Positions 7,952-56,768 of a stretch of 64,000 nt of DNA are shown one piece after another. Below the pieces are notes generated by a model. The model was not told the DNA's origin and searched no databases. It saw only the letters and a program-made list of their open reading frames with translations. Both the position numbers and the translations under genes were made by a program. Source of the stretch: an uncultured Gemmobacter sp. (GTDB taxonomy: Bacteria > Pseudomonadota > Alphaproteobacteria > Rhodobacterales > Rhodobacteraceae); the NCBI GenBank assembly GCA_964439015.1, contig CAYTMV010000001.1, positions 34,174-98,173 on the forward strand, read 5' to 3'. Position 1 is the stretch's first letter. Each line of letters opens with the position of its first letter.

Positions 7952-7971
7952 CGCTCAGCGTTGGCTGAGGC

Positions 7972-12922: not shown

Positions 12923-13336
12923 TTACCGTTCGGTCAGGTTTGTCTCCGGCTTGGTCTCGGTCAGGTTGGGCGACAAGTGCTGATCGGGCGCCTCGAAGGT
13001 GGCCCAGAGACTTTCCGTGCCAGTGGCGGGCAAGTTCTCGGTGCGTTCGGCGCCGTGCATATGTGCTTTTGCCAGGAAATTGGCGGTGACCGGCGCTGTC
13101 AGAAAGATGAACAGCGTGATCAGCAGCTCATGCCAGCTCAGATCCCCACGCGCGAACCACATGTAGGTCATCGAGGCCAGCAGCACCCCGCCCAGCCCCA
13201 GGGTCGAGGCCTTGGTCGGCGCATGCAGGCGCGTCATGGTATCTGGCAGGCGGATCAGGCCATAGCTGCCCACCAGCGCGAAGAAGCCACTCACCACCAG
13301 CAGGGCGGAAATGATGATCTCTGCAATCAGGTGCAT
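12923..13336 (-). CDS. phaG: monovalent cation/H+ antiporter subunit G
   Basis: 137 aa with MnhG/PhaG-type N-terminal helices (LRLPDTMTRLHAPTKASTLG). Confidence 0.85.
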   Translation of the reverse strand: MHLIAEIIISALLVVSGFFALVGSYGLIRLPDTMTRLHAPTKASTLGLGGVLLASMTYMWFARGDLSWHELLITLFIFLTAPVTANFLAKAHMHGAERTENLPATGTESLWATFEAPDQHLSPNLTETKPETNLTER

Positions 13337-13343
13337 GTCGCCC

Positions 13344-13613
13344 TCACTCGATGATGTCGCCGCGCAGCAGAAACTTGGCGTAGGCCACGGTCGAGATGAA
13401 CCCGGTCATGGCGAACAGCAGGGCTGCCTCGAAATTCAGGCCGGTGTTCTGCCAGATCCCGTAGGCCACCGTCAGGCCGATCATGTTCATCACCATCGTG
13501 TCCAGCGCCAGGATACGATCCGGTGGCGTCGGGCCGCGCATGAGACGCCAGAGGTTGGCCAGGAGGCCCAGCGTGAAACAGGCGCTGGCAAAGCCGAGGG
13601 CATAGCCGATCAT
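13344..13613 (-). CDS. phaF: monovalent cation/H+ antiporter subunit F
   Basis: 89-aa three-helix membrane protein at the conserved operon position. It overlaps the phaE stop. Confidence 0.8.
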   Translation of the reverse strand: MIGYALGFASACFTLGLLANLWRLMRGPTPPDRILALDTMVMNMIGLTVAYGIWQNTGLNFEAALLFAMTGFISTVAYAKFLLRGDIIE

Positions 13614-14107
13614 TCGAAGATCCTCCGCAAACGAGCCTCATACCGCGCCTTGATTTCGTCGCGCACGCTGTCGGGATCGGGGGCGTGCAGGGCATGGACC
13701 AGCAAGGCGCGGCCGTCCCCGGACATGTCGGCGGTCACGGTGCCGGGGGTCATGGTGATGGTGCCGGCCAACAGCGTGATCGCTTCGGGCGTGCGCAGAT
13801 CGATCGGCACGGTGATCCAGGCGGGACGCAGCGCATGCCGGGGCAGGAACAGCACGATCTTTGCCACCACGAAATTCGACTTCACGATGTCATGCAGCAC
13901 GATCCAAACATATTCGATCATCTGCGGCAGCCGTTTCAGGCGCAATATCGGACGGTCGGGCCACCATGCGGCAGTCAGCCATGGGATCATGATCCCGAGC
14001 AGGATCGCAAAGACCAGACTGCCCCAGCGAAACTCGTTCACAAGGCCAAGCCAGACCAGGATCAGCACCAGCGTCAAACCGGGATGAGGGAACAGGCGGC
14101 GCAGCAT
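13610..14107 (-). CDS. phaE: monovalent cation/H+ antiporter subunit E
   Basis: 165 aa, MnhE-like, at the conserved operon position. Confidence 0.8.
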   Translation of the reverse strand: MLRRLFPHPGLTLVLILVWLGLVNEFRWGSLVFAILLGIMIPWLTAAWWPDRPILRLKRLPQMIEYVWIVLHDIVKSNFVVAKIVLFLPRHALRPAWITVPIDLRTPEAITLLAGTITMTPGTVTADMSGDGRALLVHALHAPDPDSVRDEIKARYEARLRRIFE

Positions 14108-14108
14108 C

Positions 14109-15617: not shown

Positions 15618-15976
15618 GCGCGGCCCTCCGGTTTGGCGGGGGCATCATCCTCGATCCCGTCCATGTCCACGCTGTCAGATCCCGATTCCAGCCAGGCGCC
15701 GAGACCCATCATCACGATCACTGCCGTCATGCCGAAGCCGATCACGATGGCGGTCAGCACCAGGGCCTGCGGCAGGGGATCGGTATGGGCTTGCGCTGCC
15801 GGATCGAGGATCGGTGGCACGCCCACCGCAAGCCGCCCCGACACAAAGATGAACAGGTTGCAGGCATAGGACAGCAGCGCCAGCCCCAGGATCACCGGAA
15901 AGCTGCGCATCCGCAGCACCAGATACACCCCGCCCGCCGTCAGAAGGCCGATGGCCGATGCGATCAGATATTCCAT
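15614..15976 (-). CDS. phaC: monovalent cation/H+ antiporter subunit C (NuoK-like)
   Basis: 120-aa three-helix protein at the conserved operon position. Confidence 0.85.
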   Translation of the reverse strand: MEYLIASAIGLLTAGGVYLVLRMRSFPVILGLALLSYACNLFIFVSGRLAVGVPPILDPAAQAHTDPLPQALVLTAIVIGFGMTAVIVMMGLGAWLESGSDSVDMDGIEDDAPAKPEGRA

Positions 15977-15979
15977 GCC

Positions 15980-18829: not shown

Positions 18830-18995
18830 GCGGGTGTCCGTTCTGTTGTCGATCTTGACGAAGAACGGGCTATGTAACTGCCCGCGCTTGGTCTTTCACA
18901 GATGGGGTTCCTGCTTGATGGGTCAAGACAGGCGACCAAGTCAAGCAAGGGCGGGCGCATTTTACCCGCTCGGAACCCTTGGCACAGCGACAACG

Positions 18996-19934
18996 TCAGC
19001 CCTGCGGGGTCATGGCCTTGCGATGTTCTGCGCGCTTCAGCCCCAGCTGCCGCTCGCGCCAGATGATCAGAACGCCTGCCAGCATCACCAGACTTGCGCC
19101 GAACAGCATGGTGCCGGTGGGCACCTCGGAGAAAAAGAACCAGCCGATTGCAAGGGCGAAAATCATCGAGGCGTAGTCGAAGGGCGCCACGACCGAGGCA
19201 TCCGCCTCGCGATAGCTGGAGGTCAGGAAAATCTGCCCGAACCCGCCCAGAATGCCCGCCATGATCAGAATTGTCAGATCCTGCGGTCCGGGAAAGACCC
19301 AGCCGAAGGGCAGGGTAATGAAGGACAGCAGGGTCGCCGTGACAGAAAACCAGAACACGATGGCCGGCGTGCCCTCGGTATCGACCAGCTTGCGCACGAA
19401 GACTTGCGCCAGCGCGGTAAAGATCGCCCCCACCAACACCAGCATTGCCCCCAGTGCCTGTGCGTGGCTGATTGCATCGCCCTGTGTCACGGTCAGCCGA
19501 GGGGCGACGATGATCAGCACACCCGCAAGGCCCAGCGCCACCGCCGACAGCCGGAACAGCCGCACCTCCTCTCCCAGAAACATCGCGGCGAAGATCACGG
19601 TCAGCAGCGGCGCGGCATAGCCGATGGCCGTGACCTCGGGCAGGGGCAGGAAGGCGAGACTGGCAAAGCCGAAGCCCATGGCGCAGGTGCCCATCACCCC
19701 GCGCCACAGATGGCCGATCGGGTTGCGGGTCTTCAATCCCTGCCGCAACTCGCCGCGCAGCAGCAGCCAGACCAGAATCACCGGGATGGCGAAGGCCGAG
19801 CGGAAGAACACCGTCTCGCCCGCCGGCACGCGGCCGCCGGTCGATTTGATCAGCGCCGTCATGGTGATGAAGATCAGCACCGATGTCAGCTTGTAGGCAA
19901 TGCCGCGCAGCGGGCGGCGGGTCCGCGTTTCCAT
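18996..19934 (-). CDS. EamA/DMT family transporter
   Basis: 312 aa from METRTRR. It has ten predicted helices in a two-EamA-repeat layout. The annotated longer ORF start runs into the divergent ade promoter region. Confidence 0.75.
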
Positions 19935-20031
19935 CCGCCGACCGTGGCAGGGGCAGGCCTTCATCGCAAGGGGGGCGCAATCTCTTGCGCGCCGCCGCTC
20001 ATCGCGCTTTGCTGGCCGAAAGGAGTCCCCA

Positions 20032-42086: not shown

Positions 42087-42422
42087 TCAGACCGTCAGCC
42101 CCATCTCGCGCAGCGCGGTCAGGGCGGCTTCGGCCCCCTCGCAGGTTTTCAGCCGCACGGCCACCGTGCCTGCATAGCCGAAGCGGCCCGACAGCGCGGG
42201 GCGGATCGTCGCTTCCAGACCCAGCGGGCCAAGGGTCAGCGCGTCCAACGCATCCTCGGCGCCAAAGCCTTCGTCATTCACCTCGAACCAGATCGGGCCG
42301 CCGTCGAGGGCTTGGCTGAACAGCACGTAATCGTCGCGCTTCGGGTCGACGAAGCCAACGAAACGCCGGCCATCCTCTGCCGTCACAGTGGCATAGCCCG
42401 CCTTCACCACGATATCCGCCAT
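42087..42422 (-). CDS. hypothetical small cytoplasmic protein
   Basis: 111 aa from MADIVVKAGY. It has no TM helix and I recognise no family. It sits at the hemE-proximal edge of the accessory block, divergent from the diflavin reductase. Confidence 0.4.
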   Translation of the reverse strand: MADIVVKAGYATVTAEDGRRFVGFVDPKRDDYVLFSQALDGGPIWFEVNDEGFGAEDALDALTLGPLGLEATIRPALSGRFGYAGTVAVRLKTCEGAEAALTALREMGLTV

Positions 42423-42588
42423 CTTGCCGTCCTCCATTCTGTCGGGTGCATACGCGGTTTGGCGCTCTTTCACCACGTCGTTTTCCGGGGCGTGGCCTTG
42501 GTGGAGGCGCGTGGACGGCACGCACCTGTTCCGAGTGCAGCGTTCCGGAAGGATGGATGTGCCGGTTGTTTTACCCCCCTGCGCAATC

Positions 42589-42604
42589 TGGCACAGGTCT
42601 TGCA
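42589..42604 (+). promoter_or_regulatory. sigma-54 (-24/-12) promoter TGGCAC-AGGTC-TTGCA
   Basis: Perfect match to TGGCAC-N5-TTGCA, 26-38 nt upstream of the reductase start codons. A 21-nt stretch including it is identical to the promoter at 56279..56299. Confidence 0.75.
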
Positions 42605-42641
42605 TGGGGAGGGAAAGGTTTCCGTCAAGATGAGATGTCCC

Positions 42642-44309
42642 ATGCAGCAGGTAGTTCCCGTCGCGCAGAGCCAGCAGGGCGCGGCTTCGATTCATGTATT
42701 GTTCGGCACCCAGACCGGCACGACCGAAATGGTCGCATCGGATATCGAGGACGCGCTGGCGGCCAAGGGCTTTGCGGTCTCTGCCCCGCGCGGTCTGGAT
42801 GAGGTGACCATGGCCGAGCTTTCCGGTCTGGGCACGGTGCTGGTTGTCTGCTCAAGCTATGGCGATGGCTGGTTTCCGGATGCGGCGGTCGATTTCTACG
42901 AGGCGCTGACCGCGCCGGATGCGCCGGATCTGACGGGTCTCAGCTTTGCTGTGCTTGGGTTTGGCGACAGCGGTTATGATGATTTCTGCGCGGCCGGTCG
43001 TCTGCTGGACGAGGCGTTGGCGGCCTGTGGGGCCTTGCGTATCCACCCTCGCGGCAGCTGCGACATTGTCTATGAGCAGGCTGCCGAAACCTGGACGGAG
43101 GGCGTGCTGTCGGTGCTGCAAACACGCCGCGCCGAGGGTGCGGTGGCGGCCGTGGCCGCGCCCGTGGTGCTGCGGGAAAAAGGTGAGCGCCCGAAATGGA
43201 CCCGCGCCCATCCCTGCGCGGCGCGGCTGGTGGAAAACCGTCTGTTGTCCGATCCCGCCTCGGACAAGGAAATCCGGCATTTCCGCATCGAGCTGGGCGA
43301 GGACGGGCCGGCTTATGAGGTCGGGGATGCGCTGAACATCCTGCCGGAAAACGATCCGGCACTGGTCGAGGCTTGGCTTGACCGCAGCGGCGTCGCGCCC
43401 GAGACGGTCCTTCCGGGCCATGATCGCCCCTTTGCCGACATGCTGCGGGATGGTCTGGAGATCGTGACCCCCTCGCGGGAATTGCTGGAGTTGATGGCCA
43501 AACGCGCAGCGGGGGGGGAACTTGGGCGGCTGATGGCACAAGGCGACCGCGCCGGGCTTGAGGCCTGGCTGTGGGGGCGCGATGCGCTGGACCTTCTGAC
43601 GGAGGTGCCCGAAGTCACGCTGTCGCCTGAGGAGCTTGTATCGGTGCTGCGTCCGCTGCAGCATCGGTCCTATTCGATTGCCTCCAGTGCGCGGGTCTTG
43701 CCGCATGCAGTGGATCTGACGGTGTCGGTGGTGCGCTTTGACAGAAATGGGCGGGCCCATGGCGGGGTCTGCTCGACCTATCTGGCAGACCGGCTGCCGG
43801 TCGGTGGCGCGGTGAACGTGTTTGTTACGCCCAATTCGGCGTTCCGGGTGCCGTCGGACCCGGCGGTGCCGATGATCATGGTTGGTCCCGGCGCCGGCAT
43901 CGCCCCGTTCATCGGCTTTTTGCAGGAGCGTGCGGCGGTCGGCGCAACGGGCAGCAACTGGCTGTTCTTCGGTGATCGGCGCCGCGCGCATGACTTCATC
44001 TATCGCGCCGAGCTGGAGGCGTGGCAGCAGCAGGGGGTTTTGACCCGGCTGGATCTGGCCTTCTCGCGCGATGGCGCGGAAAAGGTCTATGTGCAGGACC
44101 GGATGCGCGCCGCCGGGGCCGATCTTTTTGCCGCACTGGAGGCAGGGGGGCATTTTTACGTCTGCGGTGACGCGCAGCGCATGGCCCCCGATGTCGAGGC
44201 GGCGCTGCTTGAGGTCATTGCCGAGCATGGCGGTCTGGATGCTGCGGGGGCGCAGGAATATCTGGCGCGGTTGCGGCGCGAAAGGCGCTATCTGCGCGAC
44301 GTTTACTGA
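42642..44309 (+). CDS. diflavin reductase (flavodoxin + FAD/NADPH domains, CysJ/CPR-like)
   Basis: FMN motifs are VLFGTQTGTTE and SSYGDGWFPD. The FAD motif is RSYSIASS and the NADPH motif is GPGAGIAPFIGF, with a C-terminal RYLRDVY. The start is at MQQVV; an alternative ATG lies at 42630. Confidence 0.8.
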   Translation: MQQVVPVAQSQQGAASIHVLFGTQTGTTEMVASDIEDALAAKGFAVSAPRGLDEVTMAELSGLGTVLVVCSSYGDGWFPDAAVDFYEALTAPDAPDLTGLSFAVLGFGDSGYDDFCAAGRLLDEALAACGALRIHPRGSCDIVYEQAAETWTEGVLSVLQTRRAEGAVAAVAAPVVLREKGERPKWTRAHPCAARLVENRLLSDPASDKEIRHFRIELGEDGPAYEVGDALNILPENDPALVEAWLDRSGVAPETVLPGHDRPFADMLRDGLEIVTPSRELLELMAKRAAGGELGRLMAQGDRAGLEAWLWGRDALDLLTEVPEVTLSPEELVSVLRPLQHRSYSIASSARVLPHAVDLTVSVVRFDRNGRAHGGVCSTYLADRLPVGGAVNVFVTPNSAFRVPSDPAVPMIMVGPGAGIAPFIGFLQERAAVGATGSNWLFFGDRRRAHDFIYRAELEAWQQQGVLTRLDLAFSRDGAEKVYVQDRMRAAGADLFAALEAGGHFYVCGDAQRMAPDVEAALLEVIAEHGGLDAAGAQEYLARLRRERRYLRDVY

Positions 44310-44330
44310 TCGCACTCCTTCAGGATGGCA

Positions 44331-44365
44331 AAGGCCGCGCCCCGGTCAAGGGCGCGGCCTTTTCG
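44331..44365. terminator. bidirectional terminator between the reductase and the amidotransferase-like gene
   Basis: 12-bp stem AAGGCCGCGCCC/GGGCGCGGCCTT followed by TTTCGG. Confidence 0.6.
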
Positions 44366-44384: not shown

Positions 44385-45101
44385 TCAGCCGGCCTTCGCC
44401 TCGATACCTGCGCCGCGCATCAGGGCGGCGACCTTGCGGGCAAGCGGGGCATTGTCGACCTCAGACTGCGCGAGTTTGCCCTTGGCTTCGGCGGCGTGGT
44501 CGTGGCTGATCCACTCACCCGCCAGATCATCCGTCAGATCCTGCATGAATTCCTTTGTGAATTCAGGGTGAAACTGGACACTCAAGGCAGGGAAGTCATA
44601 GGCAATGACGCCAAAGGGGCAGAAATCATTGCCCCCGGACGAGCGGGCCGAGGGTGGCAGAACCTCGACCTGATCCTGATGGAAGACCAGGACGTCCTGA
44701 GGGGCGAGGCCAAGATCGCCGAAATGATAGGGCTGCGGTCCGGTGGCCACGCCCTTGTCGGATTTGCGCACCGCGCCGCCAAAGGCTGCCGCCATGATCT
44801 GATGGCCAAAGCAGATGCCGAACATCGGGATGCGCGCCTCGGCCAGACGGTTGAGGAAACGCTGCACATCCAGCATCCAGGGCAGGTTTTCATAGACGCC
44901 ATGCTTTGAGCCGGTCAGCAGATAGCCATCATAGTCCGCCGGATCTTCTGGCAGGGCCTCGCCCGAGACGACGCTGATAGTGGTAAATGTGGCTTCTGGC
45001 AGGGCCGGGCCAAGCCAGTTGCGCGCCATCTGCGGATATGTCCCGTGCTGGTCACGCAATTGCTCGGGGGTAAGGCCGTTTTCAATGATGCAGATTTTCA
45101 T
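44385..45101 (-). CDS. class I glutamine amidotransferase-like protein (PuuD-type gamma-glutamyl amide hydrolase candidate)
   Basis: 238 aa with the GATase1 nucleophile elbow GICFGHQ and a His (FHPE) near the C-terminus. Confidence 0.7.
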   Translation of the reverse strand: MKICIIENGLTPEQLRDQHGTYPQMARNWLGPALPEATFTTISVVSGEALPEDPADYDGYLLTGSKHGVYENLPWMLDVQRFLNRLAEARIPMFGICFGHQIMAAAFGGAVRKSDKGVATGPQPYHFGDLGLAPQDVLVFHQDQVEVLPPSARSSGGNDFCPFGVIAYDFPALSVQFHPEFTKEFMQDLTDDLAGEWISHDHAAEAKGKLAQSEVDNAPLARKVAALMRGAGIEAKAG

Positions 45102-45120: not shown

Positions 45121-46632
45121 TCAGCCGCCGAGATGGATCCAGACCGATTTGGTCTGGGAATACTGGTGCAGGGCTTCTAGGCACTTGTCGCGGCCGTTGC
45201 CAGATTGCTTGACGCCGCCCCAAGGCGCCGTGGCATCGCGGTCGAAATAGGTGTTCACCCAGACCATGCCGCTTTCGACATCGCGGGCAAAACGGTGGGC
45301 GCGGCCCAGGTCGCGGGTCCAGACCGAGGCGCCCAGACCGAAGATCGAGCTGTTGGCCAGTTCCAACCCATGTTCCATGTCGCGGATGGGCAGCACGACG
45401 CCCACCGGCCCAAAGATCTCGTGCGCGGCAATCGTCATGTCGTTGCGCGCCTCGGTGAACAGGGTGGGCGAGATGTAGAGGCCATCCTCCAGCCCCTCGG
45501 GTGCGCCCCCGCCCATGGCCAGATGCGCGCCCTCTTCCCGGCCCTTGGCGATATAGCTGCAGACCGTCCGGTGCTGGCGGTCATCCACCATTGGCCCCAT
45601 GCTGGTGGCCGGGTCCAGTGGATCGCCGGGCTGATAAAGTGCTGCGGTTCTGTCGATGAAACGCTGCAGAAATTCATCATGGATCGACCGTTCGACCATG
45701 ATCCGCGATCCGGCGGCGCAAACCTCGCCCTGATTGGAATAGATGCCATGCACGGCGTTTTCCACGGCGCGATCCAGATCGCAATCGGCCAGGATGATCT
45801 GGGGCGACTTGCCGCCACACTCGGTGGTGACATGCTTGAGGTTGGACTCGCCGGCATAGCGCATCATCAGCCCGCCGACCGGCACCGATCCGGTAAAGCC
45901 GATCTTGTCCACGTCCATGTGCCGGGCCAGCGCCTGCCCGGCATCCGAACCCGAGCCATTGACGACGCTGAACACCCCCGCCGGCCCGCCGGCCTCGGCA
46001 AACAGCCGCGCCAGCAGCACGGCCGACATGCCGGTCTGTTGGGCGGGCTTCAGCACCACCGAGTTGCCCATCGCCAACGCCGGACCCAGTTTCCAGCAGG
46101 CCATCAGCATCGGATAGTTCCACGGCACGATCAGCCCGACGACCCCCAGCGGCTGGCGCAGCACATAGTGCAGGGCGCCTGGGTCGGTATTGGTCACGGC
46201 CCCTTCGATCTTGTCGATCGCCTCGGCGGCGAAGCGGATGTTGGCGACCGCCGAAGGCACGTCAAAGCCCAGCATCCCCGATACGGTCTTGCCCATCTCG
46301 ACACTGTCCAGCAGCGCAAATTCAGCCGCGTGGGCGCCGATCAGATCGGTAAAGCGCAGCAGCACATCCATGCGCGCGCGCGGCGGCAGGCGCGACCAGA
46401 CGCCCTCGCGGAAGGCGCGGCGGGCGGCTTTTACCGCGCGATCGACATCTTCCGCCGTGCCCGCGGCCATCGCGGCAATCACCTGCCCGGTGGCAGGGTT
46501 GACGCTGTCATAGCGGCCACCGGCAGCGGCATCGCAAAGCGCGCCGTCGATGAACATCCGGGTTTCATAGGCGTGGCTGGCGGCAAGGGCGTGCCATTCG
46601 GTCTTGCTGGCAGGGATGGGGCGCGAAGTCAT
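45121..46632 (-). CDS. NAD(P)-dependent aldehyde dehydrogenase
   Basis: 503 aa from MTSRPIP with an AGGAG RBS. It has ECGGKSP and the catalytic Cys in GEVCAAGSR. Confidence 0.85.
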   Translation of the reverse strand: MTSRPIPASKTEWHALAASHAYETRMFIDGALCDAAAGGRYDSVNPATGQVIAAMAAGTAEDVDRAVKAARRAFREGVWSRLPPRARMDVLLRFTDLIGAHAAEFALLDSVEMGKTVSGMLGFDVPSAVANIRFAAEAIDKIEGAVTNTDPGALHYVLRQPLGVVGLIVPWNYPMLMACWKLGPALAMGNSVVLKPAQQTGMSAVLLARLFAEAGGPAGVFSVVNGSGSDAGQALARHMDVDKIGFTGSVPVGGLMMRYAGESNLKHVTTECGGKSPQIILADCDLDRAVENAVHGIYSNQGEVCAAGSRIMVERSIHDEFLQRFIDRTAALYQPGDPLDPATSMGPMVDDRQHRTVCSYIAKGREEGAHLAMGGGAPEGLEDGLYISPTLFTEARNDMTIAAHEIFGPVGVVLPIRDMEHGLELANSSIFGLGASVWTRDLGRAHRFARDVESGMVWVNTYFDRDATAPWGGVKQSGNGRDKCLEALHQYSQTKSVWIHLGG

Positions 46633-46649
46633 GTGGGCTCCTGAGGATG

Positions 46650-46678
46650 AAAAAGGGGGCGCGCCGATGCGCGCCCCC
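46650..46678 (-). terminator. intrinsic terminator/attenuator inside the P450-ligase-ALDH gene string
   Basis: 10-bp perfect GC stem GGGGGCGCGC/GCGCGCCCCC with a 4-nt loop. On the minus strand it is followed by TTTTT, and it lies 17 nt before the ALDH start. Confidence 0.55.
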
Positions 46679-46697: not shown

Positions 46698-48200
46698 TCA
46701 GGGCAGGCAGTTCATGTAACGCCCGATGTCCCAATTGGTGACTTCCTTCAGGAAACGCTGCCAATCGTCGCGCTTCATCAGGTCATACAGCTCGTAGAGG
46801 CGGCCAGGCATGGCCTCCAGCACGATCGGGTCGGCCGCCAACGCGTCCAGCGCCTCTTTGAGGTTCATCGGGATCAGGTCGACATGCTCACCGGCCTTCA
46901 TCACCTCGACCACGTTGCGGGTTTCCGCCGGGCCGGGGTCGATGCCTTCGCGGATGCCTTCGTCGATCGCCTTCAGCAGCGCGCCGCAGAACAGGTAGGG
47001 GTTCACCATCGCATCCACCGCGCGGAACTCGAACCGGTCGGGCGAGGAGATGCGGATGGTGCAAGAGCGGTTCTGCGGACCCCAGTTGGCCCCGATCGGC
47101 GCCCAGAGGCCGACATCGGCAAAGCGGCGATAGGAGTTGACGGTCGAGGCCCCGATGGCGGTCAGCGCACCGATATGCTTCAGCGCACCGCCAAGGGCAT
47201 GCAGACCCAGTTGCGACGGCATCCAGCTGCCGTCCTTGCCCTCGAACTCGTTGGTGCCGCCGCGGTTATAGGTGAACACCTCTTCCATGCCCGGCAGATC
47301 GCCCTCGACCGAGCGGACGATCTCGTCGCCGTCGCCGCGCCACAGCGAGCAGTTGTGGTGGCATCCCAGCGCCGGATAGCCGACCATCGGCTTGGCCATG
47401 AAGCAGGCCTTCAGCCCGTGCTGCCGCGCCACCTCGTCGGCGATCTGGCGATAAGTGGTCAGGCGGTCGCAGGTGCGCAGCGCGTTGTCGAAGCTGAAAT
47501 TCAGCTCCAGCAGGCCCGGCGCATCCTCGACATCGCCCTGAACCATATCGAGGCCCATCGCCTCGGCATATTCATAGACCTGGGTCCACAGACCGCGCAC
47601 CGACTCGAACTGGCCGATGTGATAGGCATGCGGACCGGTGATCCCTTCATAGGGGAAGGCGCTGCCGTCATTGGTGGGGCGCAGCCACAGCATCTCGGGC
47701 TCCAGCCCCAGACGCAGGTGCAGACCGTCATGGGCGGCGCGGAATTCGCGCTCGAAACGCTTGAGGTTGCCGCGCACGTCGCATTCGAAATACATGCCCG
47801 GATTGACGTCTTCCTCAAGGCTGCGGAACAGCGTGCAGAACACCCGGCCGACATTCTTGTCCCACGGCAGTTGCACGAAGGTTTCCGGGTCGGGCAGGGC
47901 CAGCAACTCGCCGTCATTGGCCGAAAAGCCGTAAAGCTGGCCGTGGATGTCGCTGGCCACGTCGGTCACGCCGCCGATCCAGGTCTGGATGCCTTTCTTG
48001 GCGGTCCGTTCCCAATGGCGGGCGGGCAGCGCCTTGCCCAGAACGCGACCGGTGATCGTCACGAATTGGTAGTAGATGTATTTCACGCCGGTGGCGTTGA
48101 TCTTCTCGCGCACCCGGGCAATCCGCTCCTGACGCTGCGGGTCCGCGATTTCGCGGAACAGATCGCATTCTGCCAGTGTGGAAAAGTGATCTTTTGCCAT
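46698..48200 (-). CDS. glutamine synthetase family ligase (gamma-glutamyl-amide synthetase candidate)
   Basis: 500 aa. GS catalytic-domain motifs are retained: LEPEMLWL, DVEDAPGLLELNF, KPMVGYPALGCHHNCSLW, NSYRRF and FEFRAVDAMVNPY. Confidence 0.8.
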   Translation of the reverse strand: MAKDHFSTLAECDLFREIADPQRQERIARVREKINATGVKYIYYQFVTITGRVLGKALPARHWERTAKKGIQTWIGGVTDVASDIHGQLYGFSANDGELLALPDPETFVQLPWDKNVGRVFCTLFRSLEEDVNPGMYFECDVRGNLKRFEREFRAAHDGLHLRLGLEPEMLWLRPTNDGSAFPYEGITGPHAYHIGQFESVRGLWTQVYEYAEAMGLDMVQGDVEDAPGLLELNFSFDNALRTCDRLTTYRQIADEVARQHGLKACFMAKPMVGYPALGCHHNCSLWRGDGDEIVRSVEGDLPGMEEVFTYNRGGTNEFEGKDGSWMPSQLGLHALGGALKHIGALTAIGASTVNSYRRFADVGLWAPIGANWGPQNRSCTIRISSPDRFEFRAVDAMVNPYLFCGALLKAIDEGIREGIDPGPAETRNVVEVMKAGEHVDLIPMNLKEALDALAADPIVLEAMPGRLYELYDLMKRDDWQRFLKEVTNWDIGRYMNCLP

Positions 48201-48239: not shown

Positions 48240-49550
48240 TCACCCTTCGAGGTAACGGCGTCTTTCGGCATCGCTGACCTCGCGGGCGAGGCTGGCGGTT
48301 TCGGCGGCGCAAAAGGCCGTGAAATTGTCGATGAAGGCCCCGCCGAACAGGCGGCGGGCATGATCGCTGGCGGCCAGGCGGGCGGCGGCCTCGGGCAGGG
48401 TGCCAGGCAGACGCGCGCCCACGATGTCATCCGGGCCGGAATTGGGGCTGGGATCGGGGGCCTGCAGCCCGCGTGCGATGCCGTCGAGGCCCGCGCCCAG
48501 CATCAGCGCCAGCGTCAGATGGGTGTTGCAATCCGTGCCGGGCAGGCGGAACTCCAACCGCGCGGTGTCGCCGGCCGAGGGGCAGGAGCGGACCGCCGTG
48601 GTAAAGCACCAATCCGACCAGCTGACCGATTTCGGCGCCCAGGTCCCCGGCGCGAAGCGGCGATAGGCGTTGACGGTGTGGGCGCAAAGCGCAAACGCTT
48701 CGGGCACGATCTGGGTCATGCCGCCGATGAAATTGCGGGCCAGCGCGTTGGTTTCGCCTGCGGGATCGGCAAACAGGTTGCGCCCCGTCGCCTTGTCGAT
48801 CAGCGACAGCGTGACGTGACCGCCCAGCCCCGGATAATCCGGCCCCAGCGAGGGCATGAACGTCGCGGTCATGTTGCGCTGGCGGGCAAAGGCGCGGCTG
48901 GCCAGCCGGAAGAAACTGGCGTCATCCGCGGCCTTGAGGCCGTTGGTTGCGCCCAGCGTGGCCTCGAAACAGCCCGGCCCCAGCTCGCCGCCGACGCCGA
49001 ACAGGTCGATGCCATGGGCCAGCAGCGCCTGTTCCCATGCGGTGACAAAGGCTGCCTCGGTCGCGGCGGTCGTGCCGGACCAGCACTTGTTGTCGGCGGC
49101 AAACTGGGCCGGCGGCGCAAAGCCCCTGGCGCGCAGGCTGGACGCAGTTTCATTGAGAAAGATCACCTCGAACTCGAAGGCGGCGCGCACGTCAAAGCCC
49201 ATCTCGGCCGCACGGGCGATCTGCGCTTTCAGCACGTTGCGCGGCATGATCGGCGCATATTGGCCCGCCAGATCGGCGATGATCGCGGCCGAGCGCGCCT
49301 CGAACCCGAAGGGGCGCAAAGACGCGGTGTCGATCTCCAGCTCTTCGGTGCGATAGGGGCCGCCGCCGAACAGGGCTTCGCCCGCATCCCAATGGCCGAC
49401 GACATTGGCAAAGCGCGGCTCTGCGGCCCATTGCAGAAACTGGTCGCGGCGCAGCCTGCGTTCGCGAAACAGGCCCATATTGTCGAACTGGCCGACATGG
49501 ATGATGTCGTAACCGTGGTCATGCAGCAGTTGGCTGAGGCTTTTGGCCAT
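48240..49550 (-). CDS. glutamine synthetase family protein, divergent paralog
   Basis: 436 aa. It has the GS fold motifs FEFEVIFL, GGELGPGCFEATL, NAYRRF and LEFRLPGTD. The ATP/His motif reads GLGGHVTLSL, so the second His of the GS H-x-H pair is not conserved. Confidence 0.75.
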   Translation of the reverse strand: MAKSLSQLLHDHGYDIIHVGQFDNMGLFRERRLRRDQFLQWAAEPRFANVVGHWDAGEALFGGGPYRTEELEIDTASLRPFGFEARSAAIIADLAGQYAPIMPRNVLKAQIARAAEMGFDVRAAFEFEVIFLNETASSLRARGFAPPAQFAADNKCWSGTTAATEAAFVTAWEQALLAHGIDLFGVGGELGPGCFEATLGATNGLKAADDASFFRLASRAFARQRNMTATFMPSLGPDYPGLGGHVTLSLIDKATGRNLFADPAGETNALARNFIGGMTQIVPEAFALCAHTVNAYRRFAPGTWAPKSVSWSDWCFTTAVRSCPSAGDTARLEFRLPGTDCNTHLTLALMLGAGLDGIARGLQAPDPSPNSGPDDIVGARLPGTLPEAAARLAASDHARRLFGGAFIDNFTAFCAAETASLAREVSDAERRRYLEG

Positions 49551-50822: not shown

Positions 50823-50872
50823 CGGTATCTCCCTGATGCATGCGTTCTGGCTGCGCGTGTCATCAGGGCCTA

Positions 50873-50889
50873 TGAAATTGCCGTGCCAG
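50873..50889 (-). promoter_or_regulatory. sigma-54-like promoter CTGGCACG-GCAA-TTTCA
   Basis: The -24 element TGGCACG is perfect. The -12 element is TTTCA instead of TTGCA, so the conserved G is replaced. It lies 50 nt upstream of the P450 ATG, immediately after the rpoN paralog. Confidence 0.45.
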
Positions 50890-50960: not shown

Positions 50961-52271
50961 TTATTTCAGATACTTGCGCCGGTCTGATGTGGCCGGGATG
51001 CCCATTTGCGCGCGATATTTCGCGATGGTGCGCCGCGCAATGGACAGGCCGCGCTGCGACAGACGCGCGGCTATTGCCGCATCGCTGACGGGCTTTCGGG
51101 GGTTCTCGGCGTCAATCTGGGCGCGGATCGCCCCGCAGAGCCATGCGGCAGACACCCCTTCCGCCGCATCATCGCCGCCGATGGATTGCAGGAAAAATCG
51201 TTTCAGGGCCAGAGTGCCGGTCGGCGTCTGGATGAAAACCGCATTGACCACACGGCTGACAGTGCTTTCGCTGAGATTGAGCTGCTCGGCGAGGCTGCGC
51301 TGCGACAGGGGCCGCAGATTGCCGGGGCCGCGTTCCAGAAAATCACGTTGGTGCTGCACCAGTGCAGCGCCAATATTCAGCACGGTCCGTTGCCGGCGGG
51401 CGACGGCCTCTACCAGCCAGCGCGCGGTGCCATAAGCCGCCCGCAGTTCGGGCGAGGGCTTGCCGCGCTCCAACCGCTGCATCAGCGTTTCATCAACCGC
51501 GACAGTGGGCAAAATCGACCGGTCCAGCCGCACCTGCCACGCGCCGGTCGCATTCTGCTCTGCCAGCAGATCGGGGCGGATGGTTTGCACGGGCGGGATC
51601 GAGAAGGCGAGGCCCGGCTTTGGGTCCAGCCGCCGCAGCCGCTGCAAAACCGCATCAACGGATGCGCGAGGCAATCCGGTTGCGCGGGTCAACGCGTTGG
51701 GGCCGCCGCGTTCCAGTTCTGGCAGATGGGTCAGCACCGTCTCGGCGGCTGCGTCCAAGGCCCCTGCCTCGGCCAGTTGCAGGCGCAGACAGTCGGCCAG
51801 GTTGCGGGCGAAGAGCCCGGTGGGTTCGATCCGCTGCAATTTTTCCAGCACGGTTTCCAGGCGCCGCACCGGCACACCATGGCGGGCAGCGATCTGCTCG
51901 GGGGGCTCGGCCAGCCAACCAGCGGGCAGCAGCGCATCCGTCAGCAGAAGCGCGAGGCCACGCTCGGCCTGTGAAACCCCGCAAAGCCCCATCTGCGCCA
52001 GAACGTGATCCATCAGGCAGGGGCCATCGGCCGAACCGGCGGCAAAGGGCAGGTCGTCAGCGTCCAGCCCGCCCGGCGAGGGGCTGCGCGAAAAAGGCAG
52101 CTCGAGTGGCGGGGCGCTGATGCGCAGCAGGGGGTTTGCATCCGCCTCGCGCTGCAGCATCGCTGTCAGTTCGATGGCATTCATCTGCAGGATTGCAAGG
52201 GCCCGCTGCATGTCCGGGGTCAGCGCCAGCAGCCGCTTTTGTCGAAGATCGAGGCCCGGATTGATCTTCAT
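50961..52271 (-). CDS. rpoN: RNA polymerase sigma-54 factor, short paralog
   Basis: 436 aa from MKINPGLDLRQ. It has region I (LALTPDMQRALAILQMN), an HTH (LNLSESTVSRVV) and the RpoN box (ARRTIAKYR). Confidence 0.85.
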   Translation of the reverse strand: MKINPGLDLRQKRLLALTPDMQRALAILQMNAIELTAMLQREADANPLLRISAPPLELPFSRSPSPGGLDADDLPFAAGSADGPCLMDHVLAQMGLCGVSQAERGLALLLTDALLPAGWLAEPPEQIAARHGVPVRRLETVLEKLQRIEPTGLFARNLADCLRLQLAEAGALDAAAETVLTHLPELERGGPNALTRATGLPRASVDAVLQRLRRLDPKPGLAFSIPPVQTIRPDLLAEQNATGAWQVRLDRSILPTVAVDETLMQRLERGKPSPELRAAYGTARWLVEAVARRQRTVLNIGAALVQHQRDFLERGPGNLRPLSQRSLAEQLNLSESTVSRVVNAVFIQTPTGTLALKRFFLQSIGGDDAAEGVSAAWLCGAIRAQIDAENPRKPVSDAAIAARLSQRGLSIARRTIAKYRAQMGIPATSDRRKYLK

Positions 52272-52281: not shown

Positions 52282-53676
52282 TCAGTCGGCCGGTTTGGTC
52301 TTGCGGACGATCGTGCCGATATCGACATCAAGGGCCGCGGCCGCCTTGCGCTTGCTGCCATGCATCGCAATTGCGGACTCGATCAGTTGACGCTCGTAGC
52401 GGGCGACCATCTCCTTGAGGGTCTTGCCTTCGATCGGTGTGACCGGGGGCGGGGCATCCGCGGTGACGGTGCCGCCTTCAAGGACGGGCGTCAGCTCATC
52501 TTCGCCCATGATCGAGATCTGCTGGATGATGTTGTAGAGTTCGCGGATATTGCCGGGATAATCATAGGTCATCAGCCGGGCGTGGAGTTCGGCGCTGAGG
52601 ACCAGCGGCTCTGACCGGCGCTGATTGACGATGGCGACAAACCGCTCGATCAGATGCGCGATCAGTTCGGGCGTGTCGCGCAGCGGGCGGATCGGCAGCT
52701 TGACCACCGCCAGCCGGTGATAGAGATCGCGCCGGAAGGTCCGGTCGTTCACCATCTCCAGCAATTCGCGATTGGTGGCCGAAATCACCCGCACATGCAC
52801 GGCCCGCGGCTTTGAGCCGCCAACGCGCTGCACCGTGCCATCCTCCAGAAACGACAGCAGTTTGGATTGCAGATGCAGAGGGATCTCGCCGACCTCGTCG
52901 AGAAACAGCGTGCCGCCCTCGGCCTGCTCGATCAGCCCCTTCTTGCCCGAGCTGAGCGCGCCGGTGAACGCGCCTTTCTCATAGCCGAACAGCTCGGATT
53001 CAAACAGCGTATCGGGAATGGCCGCGCAATTCACGACGATGAAGGGGTCAGAGGCGTCGCTGACGTGGCGGTGCAGGTGGCGGGCGATCTCGGTCTTGCC
53101 GACGCCGCTTTCGCCCGTGATGATGACCCGCGCATCCTGCACCAACGCGCGTTCGTCCAGGGCAATGATGCGGTCGAGGTAGGAGCAGATCTGCCGCTGG
53201 CGCAGGAAATCCGGGCGCACCTTGCGTTCGGCGCCGGGGGTGCGGCCCGCATGGGGCAGGCCAGTCGCGCGGCGTCGGGCATGGTCAAAGACCTCGAGGT
53301 CGCGCAGCTGCATCACCATGCCGCCATCCCCGCCCATCACCCGCCGCAGGGTCACGAAAACCGCCCCGCGGATCCCGCCGCGCAGCACGAAATCGCCATT
53401 GCCCTGCCGTTCGACCGCGCCCAGCACGGTATCCCAGTCATAGCCCCCCACGGAGCCCAGCGCCTCGGCATCCTGACCGGCCAGATCGGCGCCCTTGATG
53501 CCAAGGATCTGCCCGGCCTCGGCATTGATGAACACAAGGCGGCGGTCGCGGTTGATGACGACGATCCCGTCGGCAAAAGAGGCAACGCTGCGCAGGATCA
53601 GGTCGGTTGCGTCGCCCAGAGTGGGCGGGCGCGACCTGTGGGAAGGTGCCGTTTCCTCTGGGCGGGGGCTGGTCAT
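52282..53676 (-). CDS. sigma-54-dependent transcriptional activator (PAS-AAA+-HTH)
   Basis: 464 aa with Walker A GESGVGKT, the GAFTGA loop, Walker B LFLDEVGE and a C-terminal Fis-type HTH. Its ATG overlaps the stop of the upstream PAS gene (ATGA). Confidence 0.85.
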   Translation of the reverse strand: MTSPRPEETAPSHRSRPPTLGDATDLILRSVASFADGIVVINRDRRLVFINAEAGQILGIKGADLAGQDAEALGSVGGYDWDTVLGAVERQGNGDFVLRGGIRGAVFVTLRRVMGGDGGMVMQLRDLEVFDHARRRATGLPHAGRTPGAERKVRPDFLRQRQICSYLDRIIALDERALVQDARVIITGESGVGKTEIARHLHRHVSDASDPFIVVNCAAIPDTLFESELFGYEKGAFTGALSSGKKGLIEQAEGGTLFLDEVGEIPLHLQSKLLSFLEDGTVQRVGGSKPRAVHVRVISATNRELLEMVNDRTFRRDLYHRLAVVKLPIRPLRDTPELIAHLIERFVAIVNQRRSEPLVLSAELHARLMTYDYPGNIRELYNIIQQISIMGEDELTPVLEGGTVTADAPPPVTPIEGKTLKEMVARYERQLIESAIAMHGSKRKAAAALDVDIGTIVRKTKPAD

Positions 53677-54875
53677 TTTGCCAGGATCTCGTCTTGCTGG
53701 GGATCATCGGGCATCCGCGCCTGCGGCTTGCGGAGGGTGACGGCCAGATAGGGCAGGCCGCGCGTCTCGAACCGGCGGGCGTTCACTTCAGCCTGGATCG
53801 GCCCGTCATGGTGCTGGGCGTCGACCAGGATCGGCGCCCGCAGCGCCCCGGTCACGCTTTGCTCGGTCAGGGTCATCAGGCGATGCGGATGCGCGGCGGC
53901 GCTGACCAGCTTTTCCAGCGGCTGGCCGACGATCATGTCGGTGTTCATGCCAAAGAAAACCCGGGCGGCGGTGTTGGCCAGCAGGATCAGGCCGCTGCCA
54001 TCGACCAGCAGCAGGGCCTCGGGCACTGCCACGAGGGCCAGTTCCAGATCGCCCATCCGCTTGCGCAGCTCGTCATTGCGGCGCAGGTGCTTGGAGACAT
54101 CGCGCACCGTGCCCCACATCCTGTGCAGCTGGTTGTTGCGGATCAGCCCGCGCACGTCGTTTTCGACATCGACCGTGGTGCCGTCGTAACGGGTGTCGTG
54201 GGACAGCGCGCGCACCACGTCAAAGTTGTTGCGCAGCAGGAAAAGCGCGAAGGCCTCGTTTCCCGGGTTGCGGTCGAAGATCTCTCGCACCGGCCGGTCA
54301 TTCAGATCCTGATCATCCGGCAGCCGGTAAAACCGCCCCATCGCGGCGTTGCAAAACCGCCAATGCCGGCGGTTCTCGAACATCTGGCGTACGATCTCCT
54401 GCTCCGGGGCGGACAGGTCAACCGGCTCGGCATATTCGATGCACCAGCTGGGATCGTCCGAGGCGTTGAGGATGTCGATCAACACCGCCTTGCCCTCGGC
54501 AAGGGCGTCGCGGTCGGCAAAAGAGGCGTGATGCCATTTGAAGGTCCGCAGGGTCCGTGTCGGACCCGAGCCCTCAACCTCGACGACCGCACAGACGTTC
54601 TGTGGCCTTCCATCGGCGCGGCGCAGTTCAAGCACAAGGGCCTTGGGCGCGTTTTGGGGGTGGTCAAGGATGTTGGAAAGATGTGCGCGGGCGCTGCGGC
54701 TGTAGATCCGCGACCAGTCGGCGCCCGTGATCTCTTCTGTCGCATAACCCAGCCATGCGGCCTGACGGTCGTCGCAAGCCAGGATGATCCCCTGATCCGA
54801 AATGCGGTCGATCATCGCCACGTTCTCATCCTCTGGCGAGGGGATCGGGGAAGATGCGGCGGAAACGGGTGTCAT
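53673..54875 (-). CDS. multi-PAS-domain protein without output domain
   Basis: 400 aa with PAS-like repeats (for example ILACDDRQAAWLGYATEEITG and LLVDGSGLILLANTAARVFFG). I detect no kinase, GGDEF, HTH or receiver motif. The start codon is uncertain because there is no clear RBS. Confidence 0.6.
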   Translation of the reverse strand: MTPVSAASSPIPSPEDENVAMIDRISDQGIILACDDRQAAWLGYATEEITGADWSRIYSRSARAHLSNILDHPQNAPKALVLELRRADGRPQNVCAVVEVEGSGPTRTLRTFKWHHASFADRDALAEGKAVLIDILNASDDPSWCIEYAEPVDLSAPEQEIVRQMFENRRHWRFCNAAMGRFYRLPDDQDLNDRPVREIFDRNPGNEAFALFLLRNNFDVVRALSHDTRYDGTTVDVENDVRGLIRNNQLHRMWGTVRDVSKHLRRNDELRKRMGDLELALVAVPEALLLVDGSGLILLANTAARVFFGMNTDMIVGQPLEKLVSAAAHPHRLMTLTEQSVTGALRAPILVDAQHHDGPIQAEVNARRFETRGLPYLAVTLRKPQARMPDDPQQDEILAK

Positions 54876-54965: not shown

Positions 54966-54999
54966 TAAGTATGCGCTGCAAAACTGCAGCGCATACTTA
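54966..54999. repeat. perfect 15-bp-arm inverted repeat TAAGTATGCGCTGCA-AAAC-TGCAGCGCATACTTA
   Basis: Base pairing was checked position by position (54966-54980 with 54985-54999). It is relatively AT-rich for this genome and lies between the MFS stop and the PAS gene start. Confidence 0.8.
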
Positions 55000-55023: not shown

Positions 55024-56238
55024 TCAGGCCGCGCTTGGCACGCGCCGACGCAGGCCCCGCAGGCTGCGATAGGCGATGAACGCGCCGCCAAGCGTGGCGA
55101 GGATCAGCAGGTTATTCACATGCCCGACAATGACATAGCTGCCATCCGCGATCAGCGCGCCCCCAAGGCTGGGCCCGACGAACAGGCCGACCATCAGCGC
55201 GCTGCCTGCCGCGGCCGCCACCCGGCCCTCCACATCCATCTCGGCGGCAAGGGCCGTCAGATAGGACAGGCAGAAGAAATAGCTGCCAACCCAGAACAGC
55301 GCCGAAATCGAATAGAGCGTGGCATCATTGGACGCCTGGCTGACCAGATAGGTCACCAGACCCGAGGCGATGATTCCGACGACCAGTGGCAGACGCAGGC
55401 CAAACCGCGCCCCGATCACCGTTGCCAGCAGCGGACCGACAAGCCCGAACAGCGCCGAGTTCGCCAGAAGCGCGCCAACCTCGGCTTCGCTCAGTCCCGC
55501 TTCCATGCCGGTCGTGGCGATGAACGCCCACGAAATGGTGTCGCGCAACGAGAAGCAGAAGAAGGCGATCAGGATGGCGATGCCGCCCATGTCGAGGATC
55601 GAGAAGTGGCCACGATCGGTCTGGTGCGCCTTCACGAACTCCTGGGTCGGTGCGGCTTTCGGCAGAAACACCAGCAAAGGCGACAGGACGGCAACGGTGC
55701 CGGCCAATGCCAGATAGACCCCGGTTTGCCCGTAGGCCTCGCTGATCGGGCCGAAGATCCGGGAAATGACCGCCATCACGAAGACGAACAGCACGGTCAT
55801 GTGGCCGGCAAACTTTTCGGGCTGCTCTGCATTGGCGACGGTTGCATTGCCGGTGGCCAGCGCCAGACCCGCGCCCAGACCAGCGCAGGTCCGCAGCACC
55901 ATCAGCGACTCATAGCTGCCCCAGATGGCGCTGGCGAGGTTGGCCAGGACGACGATGGCCGCGCCTGCCATCGCAACCGTGCGGCGGTTGATGACCGCGA
56001 CCCGCGGCGCAAGCAGCACCGAAGTCACGAAGACGCCGGCAAATTCCAATGTGCTGAGCAAACCGGCCTGGGCCTCGTCAAGGCCGAGGCTGGCCATGTT
56101 GGCACCCACCATGAAGGGCAGCGCGATCAGCGCCAGCAATCCGGTGCCATAGGCAGCGGCAAAGGCGGCCAGCAAGGTGCCCCAGTTGTTGGGCATCAAA
56201 TCCCTGAGCCCTCCGGGGGCGAGGGGTCTTTCGGTCAT
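55024..56238 (-). CDS. MFS transporter
   Basis: 404 aa from MTERPLAP with a GGGAGA RBS and a 12-helix profile. The longer ORF call (to 56313) would swallow the sigma-54 promoter. Confidence 0.75.
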   Translation of the reverse strand: MTERPLAPGGLRDLMPNNWGTLLAAFAAAYGTGLLALIALPFMVGANMASLGLDEAQAGLLSTLEFAGVFVTSVLLAPRVAVINRRTVAMAGAAIVVLANLASAIWGSYESLMVLRTCAGLGAGLALATGNATVANAEQPEKFAGHMTVLFVFVMAVISRIFGPISEAYGQTGVYLALAGTVAVLSPLLVFLPKAAPTQEFVKAHQTDRGHFSILDMGGIAILIAFFCFSLRDTISWAFIATTGMEAGLSEAEVGALLANSALFGLVGPLLATVIGARFGLRLPLVVGIIASGLVTYLVSQASNDATLYSISALFWVGSYFFCLSYLTALAAEMDVEGRVAAAAGSALMVGLFVGPSLGGALIADGSYVIVGHVNNLLILATLGGAFIAYRSLRGLRRRVPSAA

Positions 56239-56279
56239 GGCAGTCTCCCTGTTTGTCTTGTTTTTCTGTTGATCGGGGA

Positions 56280-56295
56280 TGCAAGACCTGTGCCA
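56280..56295 (-). promoter_or_regulatory. sigma-54 (-24/-12) promoter TGGCAC-AGGTC-TTGCA
   Basis: Perfect consensus on the minus strand, 42 nt upstream of the MFS ATG. It lies within a 21-nt stretch identical to 42585..42605. Confidence 0.75.
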
Positions 56296-56370
56296 GATTT
56301 GTCCACCTGACAAGAAACCTGTCGTTTCAACACGCTAGGCTTGCGGGGCGGTTGGTGTTGTATCCAGTGG

Positions 56371-56395
56371 TGCAGCAGGGCTGCATCACGTGATG
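56371..56395. promoter_or_regulatory. candidate upstream activator sites: TGCAGC-AGG-GCTGCA and CATCACGTGATG
   Basis: Two adjacent or overlapping perfect palindromes lie 76-100 bp upstream of the -24 element, which is the usual distance for an enhancer-binding protein. Confidence 0.3.
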
Positions 56396-56768
56396 AGGTT
56401 GCGCTTCCGTTGGCGGCCCGGCCTTGGCGCCGGGAGGGATGTGGATGGTCTGGATCTCGCGGTGGGCTGTGCTGCGCCTGCATCCGGGCCCTGTGGCGAC
56501 GGGCCTGAGCGCCGACTTTGCAGCCAATCATCCGACCATTTCGGCGCGGGCTTCGGCCCCGGCGCTGTTGGAGGTGATGAACCGCCTGACCCCGGCCGAC
56601 AGCGGCACCTTCCGGGACTGGAAGGGCCGGCCGGTGCCGTGGGGAGGTCAGTCTGCGAGGACGTGGCGTAGTTTCATCGCCTCTGCCGGTGTGAGTCCGG
56701 TTGGCCATCGAAGTGAATGGTGGAGATGGAGTTTGAAGGCTTCAACCAAGGACCGTGCGAAGTCGCCG

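Follow-up and report, generated by a model that had tools for sequence, protein, structure and literature searches.

The island and its sigma-54 sites

The stretch of DNA analysed here, hereafter the window, is 64 kb of a contig (CAYTMV010000001.1) from an uncultured Gemmobacter sp. The analysis of GC content at third codon positions and the Pfam and NCBIfam scans mark it as a Gemmobacter-like chromosome segment, in which an island of about 14 kb lies between hemE and hemF. The CcoO protein of the segment groups with Gemmobacter species in a cluster at 90% or more. Core genes border the island: ccoNOP-ccoG-ccoI, hemC and hemE at one end, hemF at the opposite end. The 21-mer AATCTGGCACAGGTCTTGCAT occurs there in two exact copies, at 42585-42605 on the plus strand and at 56279-56299 on the minus strand. 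The first copy, P_CPR, stands 5′ of the gene of a CysJ-like diflavin reductase and, judged from its sequence and its relatives, is probably a functional sigma-54 promoter by which the reductase of a cytochrome P450 is co-regulated with the P450 gene cluster.

Both copies have the form of sigma-54 promoters. In P_CPR, the TGGCAC and TTGCA elements occupy 42589-42594 and 42600-42604, respectively, and predict a transcription start near 42615. The GG and GC doublets are exactly ten bases apart, as sigma-54 spacing demands, both there (42589-42604, plus strand) and in the second copy, P_MFS (56295-56280, minus strand). The -12 element precedes the start codon by 37 nt at the reductase gene (ATG 42642) and by 41 nt at the transporter gene mfs (ATG 56241), where a GGGAG ribosome-binding site follows the promoter. 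No other site in the 64 kb matches TGGCAC-N5-TTGCW perfectly, and the window holds no additional copy of the 21-mer at up to three mismatches. The initial annotation had reported the two copies on opposite strands with the same spacer, and our window search found them exactly so.

A minus-strand array of genes runs from 56241 down to 44385, and the plus-strand reductase gene converges on it. P_MFS had been called a transporter promoter; it does lie 5′ of the gene of a major facilitator superfamily (MFS) transporter (55024-56241), but it really heads a four-gene operon. Behind mfs come the genes of a 400-aa PAS-domain protein (53673-54875), presumed to be a sensor or modulator, whose stop codon overlaps the next start; of a sigma-54 activator, or bacterial enhancer-binding protein (bEBP; 52282-53676); and of a 436-aa sigma-54, RpoN (50961-52271). 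Since the operon mfs-pas-bEBP-rpoN thus includes both the activator and the sigma, the regulon would be autoregulatory.

The bEBP has an N-terminal PAS domain, a Walker A motif, a GAFTGA motif and a C-terminal helix-turn-helix (Sigma54_activat at E = 3.5e-62; GESGVGKT, EKGAFTGA, HTH_50). The RpoN matches Sigma54_AID, Sigma54_CBD and Sigma54_DBD in Pfam and scores 324.8 on TIGR02395 against a cut-off of 277.35. Its region I is altered and its RpoN box is intact; the box, ARRTxAKYR, is invariant in the alignment.

The catabolic operon follows. By Pfam and NCBIfam, it consists of the genes of the 402-aa cytochrome P450 (49614-50822), the glutamine synthetase (GS)-like ligases 1 (436 aa, 48240-49550) and 2 (500 aa, 46698-48200), an aldehyde dehydrogenase (45121-46644), whose best NCBIfam match is PuuC at a score below the cut-off, and, in the last place, a class-I glutamine amidotransferase (GATase) or peptidase C26-type hydrolase that is PuuD/IpuF-like (44385-45101). 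A third sigma-54-like site, P_P450 (50872-50889, minus strand; CTGGCAC-GGCAA-TTTCAT), lies in the gap that separates the stop codon of rpoN (50961) from the start codon of the P450 gene (50822). Its imperfect -12 element, TTTCA, is without the conserved G, which makes it the weakest of the three window promoters. Two similar GC-rich hairpins on the minus strand (GGGGGCGCGC...GCGCGCCCCC) occupy the gaps after the ligase 2 gene (46655-46678) and after the P450 gene (49572-49598), and the former with its T-run resembles an internal terminator or attenuator of this operon.

The reductase gene (42642-44309) encodes 555 aa with flavodoxin, FAD and NAD(P) domains (Flavodoxin, FAD_binding_1 and NAD_binding_1 in Pfam). 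Its start codon at 42642 is conserved in the relatives, and translation could alternatively begin at the in-frame ATG 42630. A longer open reading frame of 665 aa (665-717 aa by some gene callers) would contain P_CPR; it was rejected because the extension has no homology, and P_CPR is therefore placed outside the coding region.

Between the convergent stop codons of the reductase and GATase genes, there is an intrinsic terminator hairpin (44330-44363; z = -3.7) with the letters AAA-GGCCGCGCCC-cggtcaa-GGGCGCGGCC-TTTT. Its A-run, 10-bp GC stem and T-run bear out the claim of a bidirectional terminator. Because the reductase gene is convergent with the operon and across this terminator from it, it would need a promoter of its own.

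The probable reductase promoter and P450 partnership in related clusters

A P450-based scan of the genome collection returned 22 loci. The closest is that of Oricola nitratireducens (L001), which has the layout of the window with an ABC transporter replacing the MFS one. Further relatives came from a protein search with the island RpoN and subsequent look-ups of gene context. RpoN-linked clusters were thus found in Stappia sp. (L047), in Paracoccus sp. TOH (L049, CP098363) and on the metagenomic contigs L048, L051-L056, L058 and L059, and a sister strain (L042 and L045) is about 99% identical to the window. The recurrent gene order is pas-bEBP-(transporter)-rpoN-p450-GS-GS-aldh-GATase, aldh being the aldehyde dehydrogenase gene, with the reductase gene convergent or nearby.

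The sigma-54 sites recur with the genes. They stand at all three homologous places in Oricola, Stappia, L048 and L058. Upstream of the P450 gene, a site is also present in L051-L055, and that position is occupied in 10 of the 10 relatives covering it. Upstream of the reductase gene, all six clusters that show the region have one (the window, L001, L047, L048, L058 and L059), and its -12 element is 36-38 nt away from the start codon in the four clusters counted (the window, L001, L047 and L048). In L059, IS66 and IS110 elements (6184-9558 and 12404-14950) split the reductase gene from the operon, and the perfect sigma-54 site is kept.

It is mainly for this conserved homologous placement, L059 included, that we take the 21-mer for a real promoter and the reductase gene for a member of the regulon. 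The initial annotation had tied the reductase into the same sigma-54 regulon as the transporter, and the six of six clusters support it. Further support comes from the GAFTGA-type activator and rpoN within the cluster, and from the gene fusions described below that make the reductase a redox partner of the P450.

Two of these contigs have features of their own. L058 is an abundant marine-metagenome variant in which pas-bEBP is divergent from rpoN-p450; its mfs and reductase genes are divergent as well and share sigma-54 sites placed back to back, with only about 55 nt from one to the other (9876-9963). The island of L059 neighbours a CBASS-like defence set (SMODS, patatin and Cap15).

The settings of the island vary among its carriers, from hemE/hemF in the window to other places in Stappia and Oricola and insertion sequences in L059, while the regulatory module of Paracoccus sp. 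TOH is near the conjugation genes TraD and MobA. Judged from these differing settings, the cluster is clearly mobile. Its mobility and the inverted orientation of the 21-mers, which bracket the whole cluster, would suit terminal inverted repeats of a mobile element carrying the 13.7 kb. This reading was rejected as highly improbable, since each copy matches the sigma-54 promoter perfectly and keeps a fixed distance to a start codon, and since the relatives have their sigma-54 sites in the same places with sequences not identical to one another. Moreover, no transposase or integrase gene was found in or beside the window cluster, and neither a target-site duplication nor any further flank similarity was seen.

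The reductase gene is annotated as encoding a sulfite reductase alpha subunit, and CysJ (6efv) is indeed among its closest solved matches, together with the NADPH-P450 reductases. It falls short of CysJ membership, however, with 524 bits on TIGR01931 against a cut-off of 668, and its alignment to the CysJ profile begins at position 52-53, the first 50 positions or so being missing. No cysI, the gene of the sulfite reductase hemoprotein, is among the neighbour genes in the window by Pfam and NCBIfam. The reductase gene is co-localised with the P450 gene in every alphaproteobacterial cluster that extends beyond the GATase gene.

The two proteins are also found fused. In Ciceribacter naphthalenivorans, one protein of 969 aa (P0194) is 65% identical to the window P450 over residues 9-401 and 51% identical to the window reductase over residues 433-969. 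P0151 and P0188 are other P450-reductase fusions, and a gene for 970 aa of P450-flavodoxin-FAD-NAD architecture, known as a gene call only, adjoins the mfs-pas-bEBP-rpoN module of Paracoccus (L049). By their sequences, these four fusions of 964-970 aa may represent a hitherto undescribed group of self-sufficient P450s.

The gamma- and betaproteobacterial clusters (L002-L022; Pseudomonas, Halomonas, Zobellella, Vitreoscilla and others) are built otherwise. A Pyr_redox_2 flavoprotein and a small flavodoxin come directly after the P450 there, rpoN is absent, the gammaproteobacterial P450 relatives (64-70% identity) are also without a diflavin reductase, and the perfect sigma-54 site is missing in 17 of the 20 full clusters. 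In terms of gene content, the electron chain and the regulation have both undergone non-orthologous replacement. Because the reductase is fused to the P450 in Ciceribacter and swapped for other reductases in the gammaproteobacteria, we infer that the P450, whose gene lies 5 kb off on the opposite strand, receives its electrons from this reductase.

As to the pathway, the operon looks like one for gamma-glutamylation of an amine-type substrate. Such routes are known for isopropylamine in Pseudomonas sp. KIE171 (Ipu) and for putrescine in E. coli (Puu). At the domain level, the island shares with them the GS-like ligase, the aldehyde dehydrogenase, the amidotransferase-type hydrolase and, as in Ipu, the P450; the Pseudomonas P450 relatives of 64-70% identity also sit with GS-like and GATase genes. 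It differs in having two GS-like genes and in its predicted electron supply, a CysJ-like diflavin reductase instead of a separate reductase and a flavodoxin. In addition, none of the pathway proteins reaches an equivalog cut-off (GGputSyn 196 against 650, PuuC 541 against 850). Our literature searches found no publications on this cluster or on the combination of P450, rpoN and GS-like genes.

Identity of the two promoters and the local RpoN

The two copies agree in more than sigma-54 recognition requires. According to a position table made from 21 promoters in this family of clusters, the consensus reads C-TGGCAC-(C/G)G-N3-TTGCAT-A, which fixes about 12 of the 21 positions and would by itself bring two independent near-consensus sites close to each other. 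Chance agreement at the nine variable positions nevertheless has a probability of about 7e-5 by a hand calculation from that table, and 0 of 100 dinucleotide shuffles gave a match even with three mismatches. Moreover, A at the first spacer position is found only in the two window sites among the 21 promoters. Hence the two copies are not independent, the chance reading is effectively refuted by the statistics and retains a negligible probability, and the claim of identity beyond the consensus stands.

The initial annotation had offered two causes for this identity, duplication of a promoter cassette or selection for one specialised holoenzyme. Aligned over 280 nt around the copies, the two regions have no homology outside the 21-mer, and the bases bordering the copies are unlike (c against a upstream, gggg against cccc downstream). 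Absence of homology beyond the 21-mer argues against the duplication of a larger cassette, so this cause is not supported.

A shorter copy is another matter. The promoters may function as described and owe their identity to a recent short-tract copy, by gene conversion or by templated repair or insertion, that has no selective meaning; the within-genome likeness in the relatives would then be the same occasional homogenisation. The spacer A that only the two window sites have is in keeping with it, as are the relatives that manage with non-identical promoters. In the sister strain, about 6-7% of the intergenic bases around both promoters are substituted and none in either 21-mer or leader, which is weak evidence of constraint, and in favour of copying it can be said that this strain is too close to show constraint on the non-consensus bases. 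We nonetheless find such copying doubtful, because the homology stops exactly at the 21-mer on both sides and leaves little identity to guide recombination, the likeness in five other genomes would require repeated independent conversions, and the third window promoter took no part.

Likeness among the promoters of one genome is a property of the family. At 12 non-consensus positions chosen by us, in only six genomes, each with at least two promoters, the identity averaged 5.05 within genomes and 3.29 between them (label permutation, p < 2e-5). With the window left out, the averages were 4.83 and 3.09 (p = 1.6e-4), and a composition-preserving control gave p = 4e-5. The identity at 21 of 21 positions is the extreme case of this within-genome likeness.

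A fast-evolving RpoN goes along with it. Between the window and L048, the enzymes are 96% (ligase 2), 92% (ligase 1), 91% (aldehyde dehydrogenase) and 90% (P450) identical, and the other proteins 78% (bEBP), 68% (reductase), 66% (RpoN) and 65% (PAS protein). In the comparisons of Stappia, Oricola, L053 and L054 with the window, no protein is less conserved than RpoN; in L051 and L052 it is level with the PAS protein, and in L048 and Paracoccus only the PAS protein ranks below it. It has 45-66% identity to the relatives where the enzymes have 75-96%. The nearest RpoN outside the island set, P0014 with 40% identity, sits in a flagellar cluster, so the island RpoNs form a group of their own.

Co-adaptation with the rapidly diverging RpoN and activator could have caused the promoter identity, and we favour this explanation tentatively on the sequence comparisons above. 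A sigma serving only three promoters can drift with them, which would yield both a fast RpoN and within-genome promoter likeness. The specialised holoenzyme is plausible in this sense, being consistent with the likeness in five other genomes and with the fast local RpoN. The constant linkage of rpoN to pas-bEBP and the P450 gene in 13 loci and its altered region I are indirect signs of a specialised paralogue.

Which sigma-54 acts at the promoters is a separate matter, and the island's own RpoN is somewhat likelier than any other to be the one used there. Its region I core, core-binding motif, helix-turn-helix and RpoN box are conserved and only the linkers vary; since the functional cores stay conserved, the gene is under selection and not decaying. 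Alternatively, the housekeeping sigma-54 of the host would serve both promoters, with the island RpoN redundant, decaying or otherwise used. The sites match the universal consensus TGGCAC-N5-TTGCA so closely that any sigma-54 could probably bind the 21-mer, and the fast evolution of the island RpoN could mean relaxed constraint.

The distribution of the core 18-mer of the promoter also favours the housekeeping sigma. In a metagenome scan, it occurs on 24 contigs; the flanks are common only to the two of the sister strain, and the remaining contigs belong to unrelated organisms of 29-65% GC that have the core at sigma-54-like sites. Since the core recurs in unrelated organisms at about the frequency expected by chance (a rough estimate), nothing in the promoter sequence demands a special sigma. 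By the same scan, the core is not a dispersed repeat, and its flanks go no further than the sister strain. In an unrelated metagenomic contig of 36% GC (L030), the core stands twice, at 5606-5623 and 7670-7687, with flanks alike, and this is another instance of repeated near-identical sigma-54-like sites.

We consider the housekeeping sigma unlikely all the same. The gene rpoN is kept beside pas-bEBP and the P450 gene in 13 of 13 related loci, which come from several families and include a plasmid-like replicon. Conserved cores amid varying linkers point to purifying selection on the function of the island RpoN. To our knowledge, moreover, Rhodobacter capsulatus has only a nif-dedicated RpoN.

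Candidate sites for the activator are found around the operons. In the gap between mfs and pas, there is a perfect 15+4+15 palindrome (54966-54999; z = -5.6), TAAGTATGCGCTGCA-GTTT-TGCAGCGCATACTTA, which holds GCTGCA-N4-TGCAGC, has no T-run after it and may serve as a binding site for a regulator or belong to an internal promoter region. About 25 nt downstream of it on the minus strand is TTGACC, conserved in five loci and a possible -35 element for sigma-70 transcription from within the operon. By sequence, the two together may form an operator plus an internal sigma-70 promoter priming pas-bEBP-rpoN. A sigma-70 consensus scan gave matches at chance level.

Palindromes of the GCTGCA-N4-TGCAGC type also lie 89-113 nt 5′ of the -24 element in L001 (9855), L054 (4723), L052 (5354) and L056 (3066). 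A variant at 56371 is 5′ of the window P_MFS, within a 42-nt block (56359-56400, minus strand) that has the palindromes CATCACGTGATG and TGCAGC-N3-GCTGCA and is a candidate upstream activator site of P_MFS; the block is unchanged in the sister strain, with substitutions on both sides of it. Over 206 kb, this type of palindrome has 22 matches against about 2.8 in shuffles, and the hexamer TGCAGC/GCTGCA is enriched about 3-fold upstream of the promoters, in both cases for a motif chosen post hoc. Statistically, the palindrome is the stronger of the two, and it is put forward as a candidate activator-binding site. An unbiased 8-mer search for a common upstream activator motif in 12 promoter regions did no better than shuffles and is uninformative because of the GC-rich background.

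Several observations weigh against the explanation favoured here. P_CPR and P_MFS are near the universal consensus and demand no specialised sigma, and the similarity test has the narrow basis of six genomes and author-chosen positions given above. The outer promoters of the relatives are alike yet not identical, so exact identity is not needed for function. The P450 promoter is the weakest, an unexpected arrangement if the genes are meant to be tightly co-expressed. Lastly, the full GCTGCA-N4-TGCAGC was not found upstream of the window P_CPR, where there is a half-site only, at about -53.

The rest of the surroundings can be described briefly. A 111-aa open reading frame on the minus strand (42087-42422), between hemE and P_CPR, matches nothing in Pfam or NCBIfam, and its conservation in the sister strain is 99%. 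Downstream of hemF, 186 nt (56461-56646) are identical in the sister strain, with many substitutions on both sides; a plus-strand protein-like fragment at about 56460-56650, considered as a remnant of a short-chain dehydrogenase/reductase-like gene, was dropped as it has no Pfam match. An Rfam scan of 41-58 kb found no known RNA families. Farther away, at 14000-20000, an AT skew of +0.26 coincides with minus-strand genes of an Mrp-type cation/proton antiporter and is probably due to the T-rich codon usage of membrane proteins.

Proposed regulation and known systems

The sequence identity, the gene content, the promoter placement conserved in relatives, the fusions and the evolutionary rates are observed, and transcription from the predicted promoters, the sigma-54 acting there, the inducer and what made the copies identical are inferred. 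The following course of regulation is proposed. An inducer, presumably the amine substrate or its gamma-glutamyl derivative, would be sensed via the PAS protein, the PAS domain of the activator or both. The activator would then drive open-complex formation by the sigma-54 holoenzyme at P_MFS, P_P450 and P_CPR. P_MFS would raise the transporter, sensor, activator and RpoN in a positive feedback, P_P450 the catabolic enzymes and P_CPR the monocistronic reductase, so that all of them would rise together. A basal promoter would be needed to prime the loop.

Parts of this design are familiar. The XylR/Pu and DmpR/Po systems are sigma-54-dependent catabolic operons that rely on the single RpoN of the host. 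There too, a bEBP with a sensory domain activates degradative -24/-12 promoters, several per regulon, but the island brings its own RpoN and has it placed behind a regulated promoter. It is in itself nothing unusual for two transcription units in a catabolic regulon to share a sigma-54 promoter.

The gene nifR4 encodes the nif-cluster RpoN of Rhodobacter capsulatus. Like it, the island rpoN lies inside the cluster that it would control and would itself be under sigma-54 and activator control, which gives positive feedback. NifR4 differs in serving nitrogen fixation and not catabolism, in having NifA as the activator and in that it is not known to have been transferred as a unit.

The reductase has the architecture of flavodoxin, FAD and NAD(P) domains that is known from the P450 BM3/CYP102-type fusions and from E. 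coli CysJ. Natural fusions of the island P450 family to the island reductase family resemble the former further, whereas the P450 and the reductase of the window are separate genes on opposite strands. A two-component system of P450 and diflavin reductase with natural fusions should be of interest to P450 enzymologists, and a gene annotated for a sulfite reductase alpha subunit becomes that of a probable P450 electron donor.

Cereibacter (Rhodobacter) sphaeroides has the dedicated pairs RpoN1/NifA, RpoN2/FleQ and RpoN3/AprX (PMC11999139). The island is similar in that it would pair a sigma-54 paralogue with its own bEBP for a small set of genes, again in a Rhodobacterales host, and its nearest non-cluster relative, P0014, is in a flagellar cluster as RpoN2 is. 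It differs in that rpoN, bEBP, the PAS protein and the target promoters travel together across several families. Its predicted targets are a P450 pathway and not nif, fla or xrpA.

The novelty lies in a catabolic regulon under sigma-54 that brings this sigma with it as a transferable block; the promoters themselves are canonical. The block of sigma, activator, sensor, promoters and pathway is found in Paracoccaceae, Stappiaceae and Phyllobacteriaceae and on a plasmid-like replicon. A degradative island that brings its sigma-54 along would be independent of that of the host, which may explain the spread of sigma-54-controlled pathways among Rhodobacterales and their relatives. If the promoter likeness reflects sigma-promoter co-adaptation, the islands would offer natural orthogonal sigma-54 parts and a model for the evolution of sigmas with few targets.

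In its boldest form, the island would be a naturally insulated and portable sigma-54 circuit, with its own sigma, activator, sensor and three cognate promoters drifting together. We regard this as speculative and rather improbable as a whole. If true, the family would be a ready-made set of mutually orthogonal sigma-54/promoter pairs, and it would let sigma-promoter co-evolution be studied as the islands pass horizontally into hosts that possibly lack a general RpoN.

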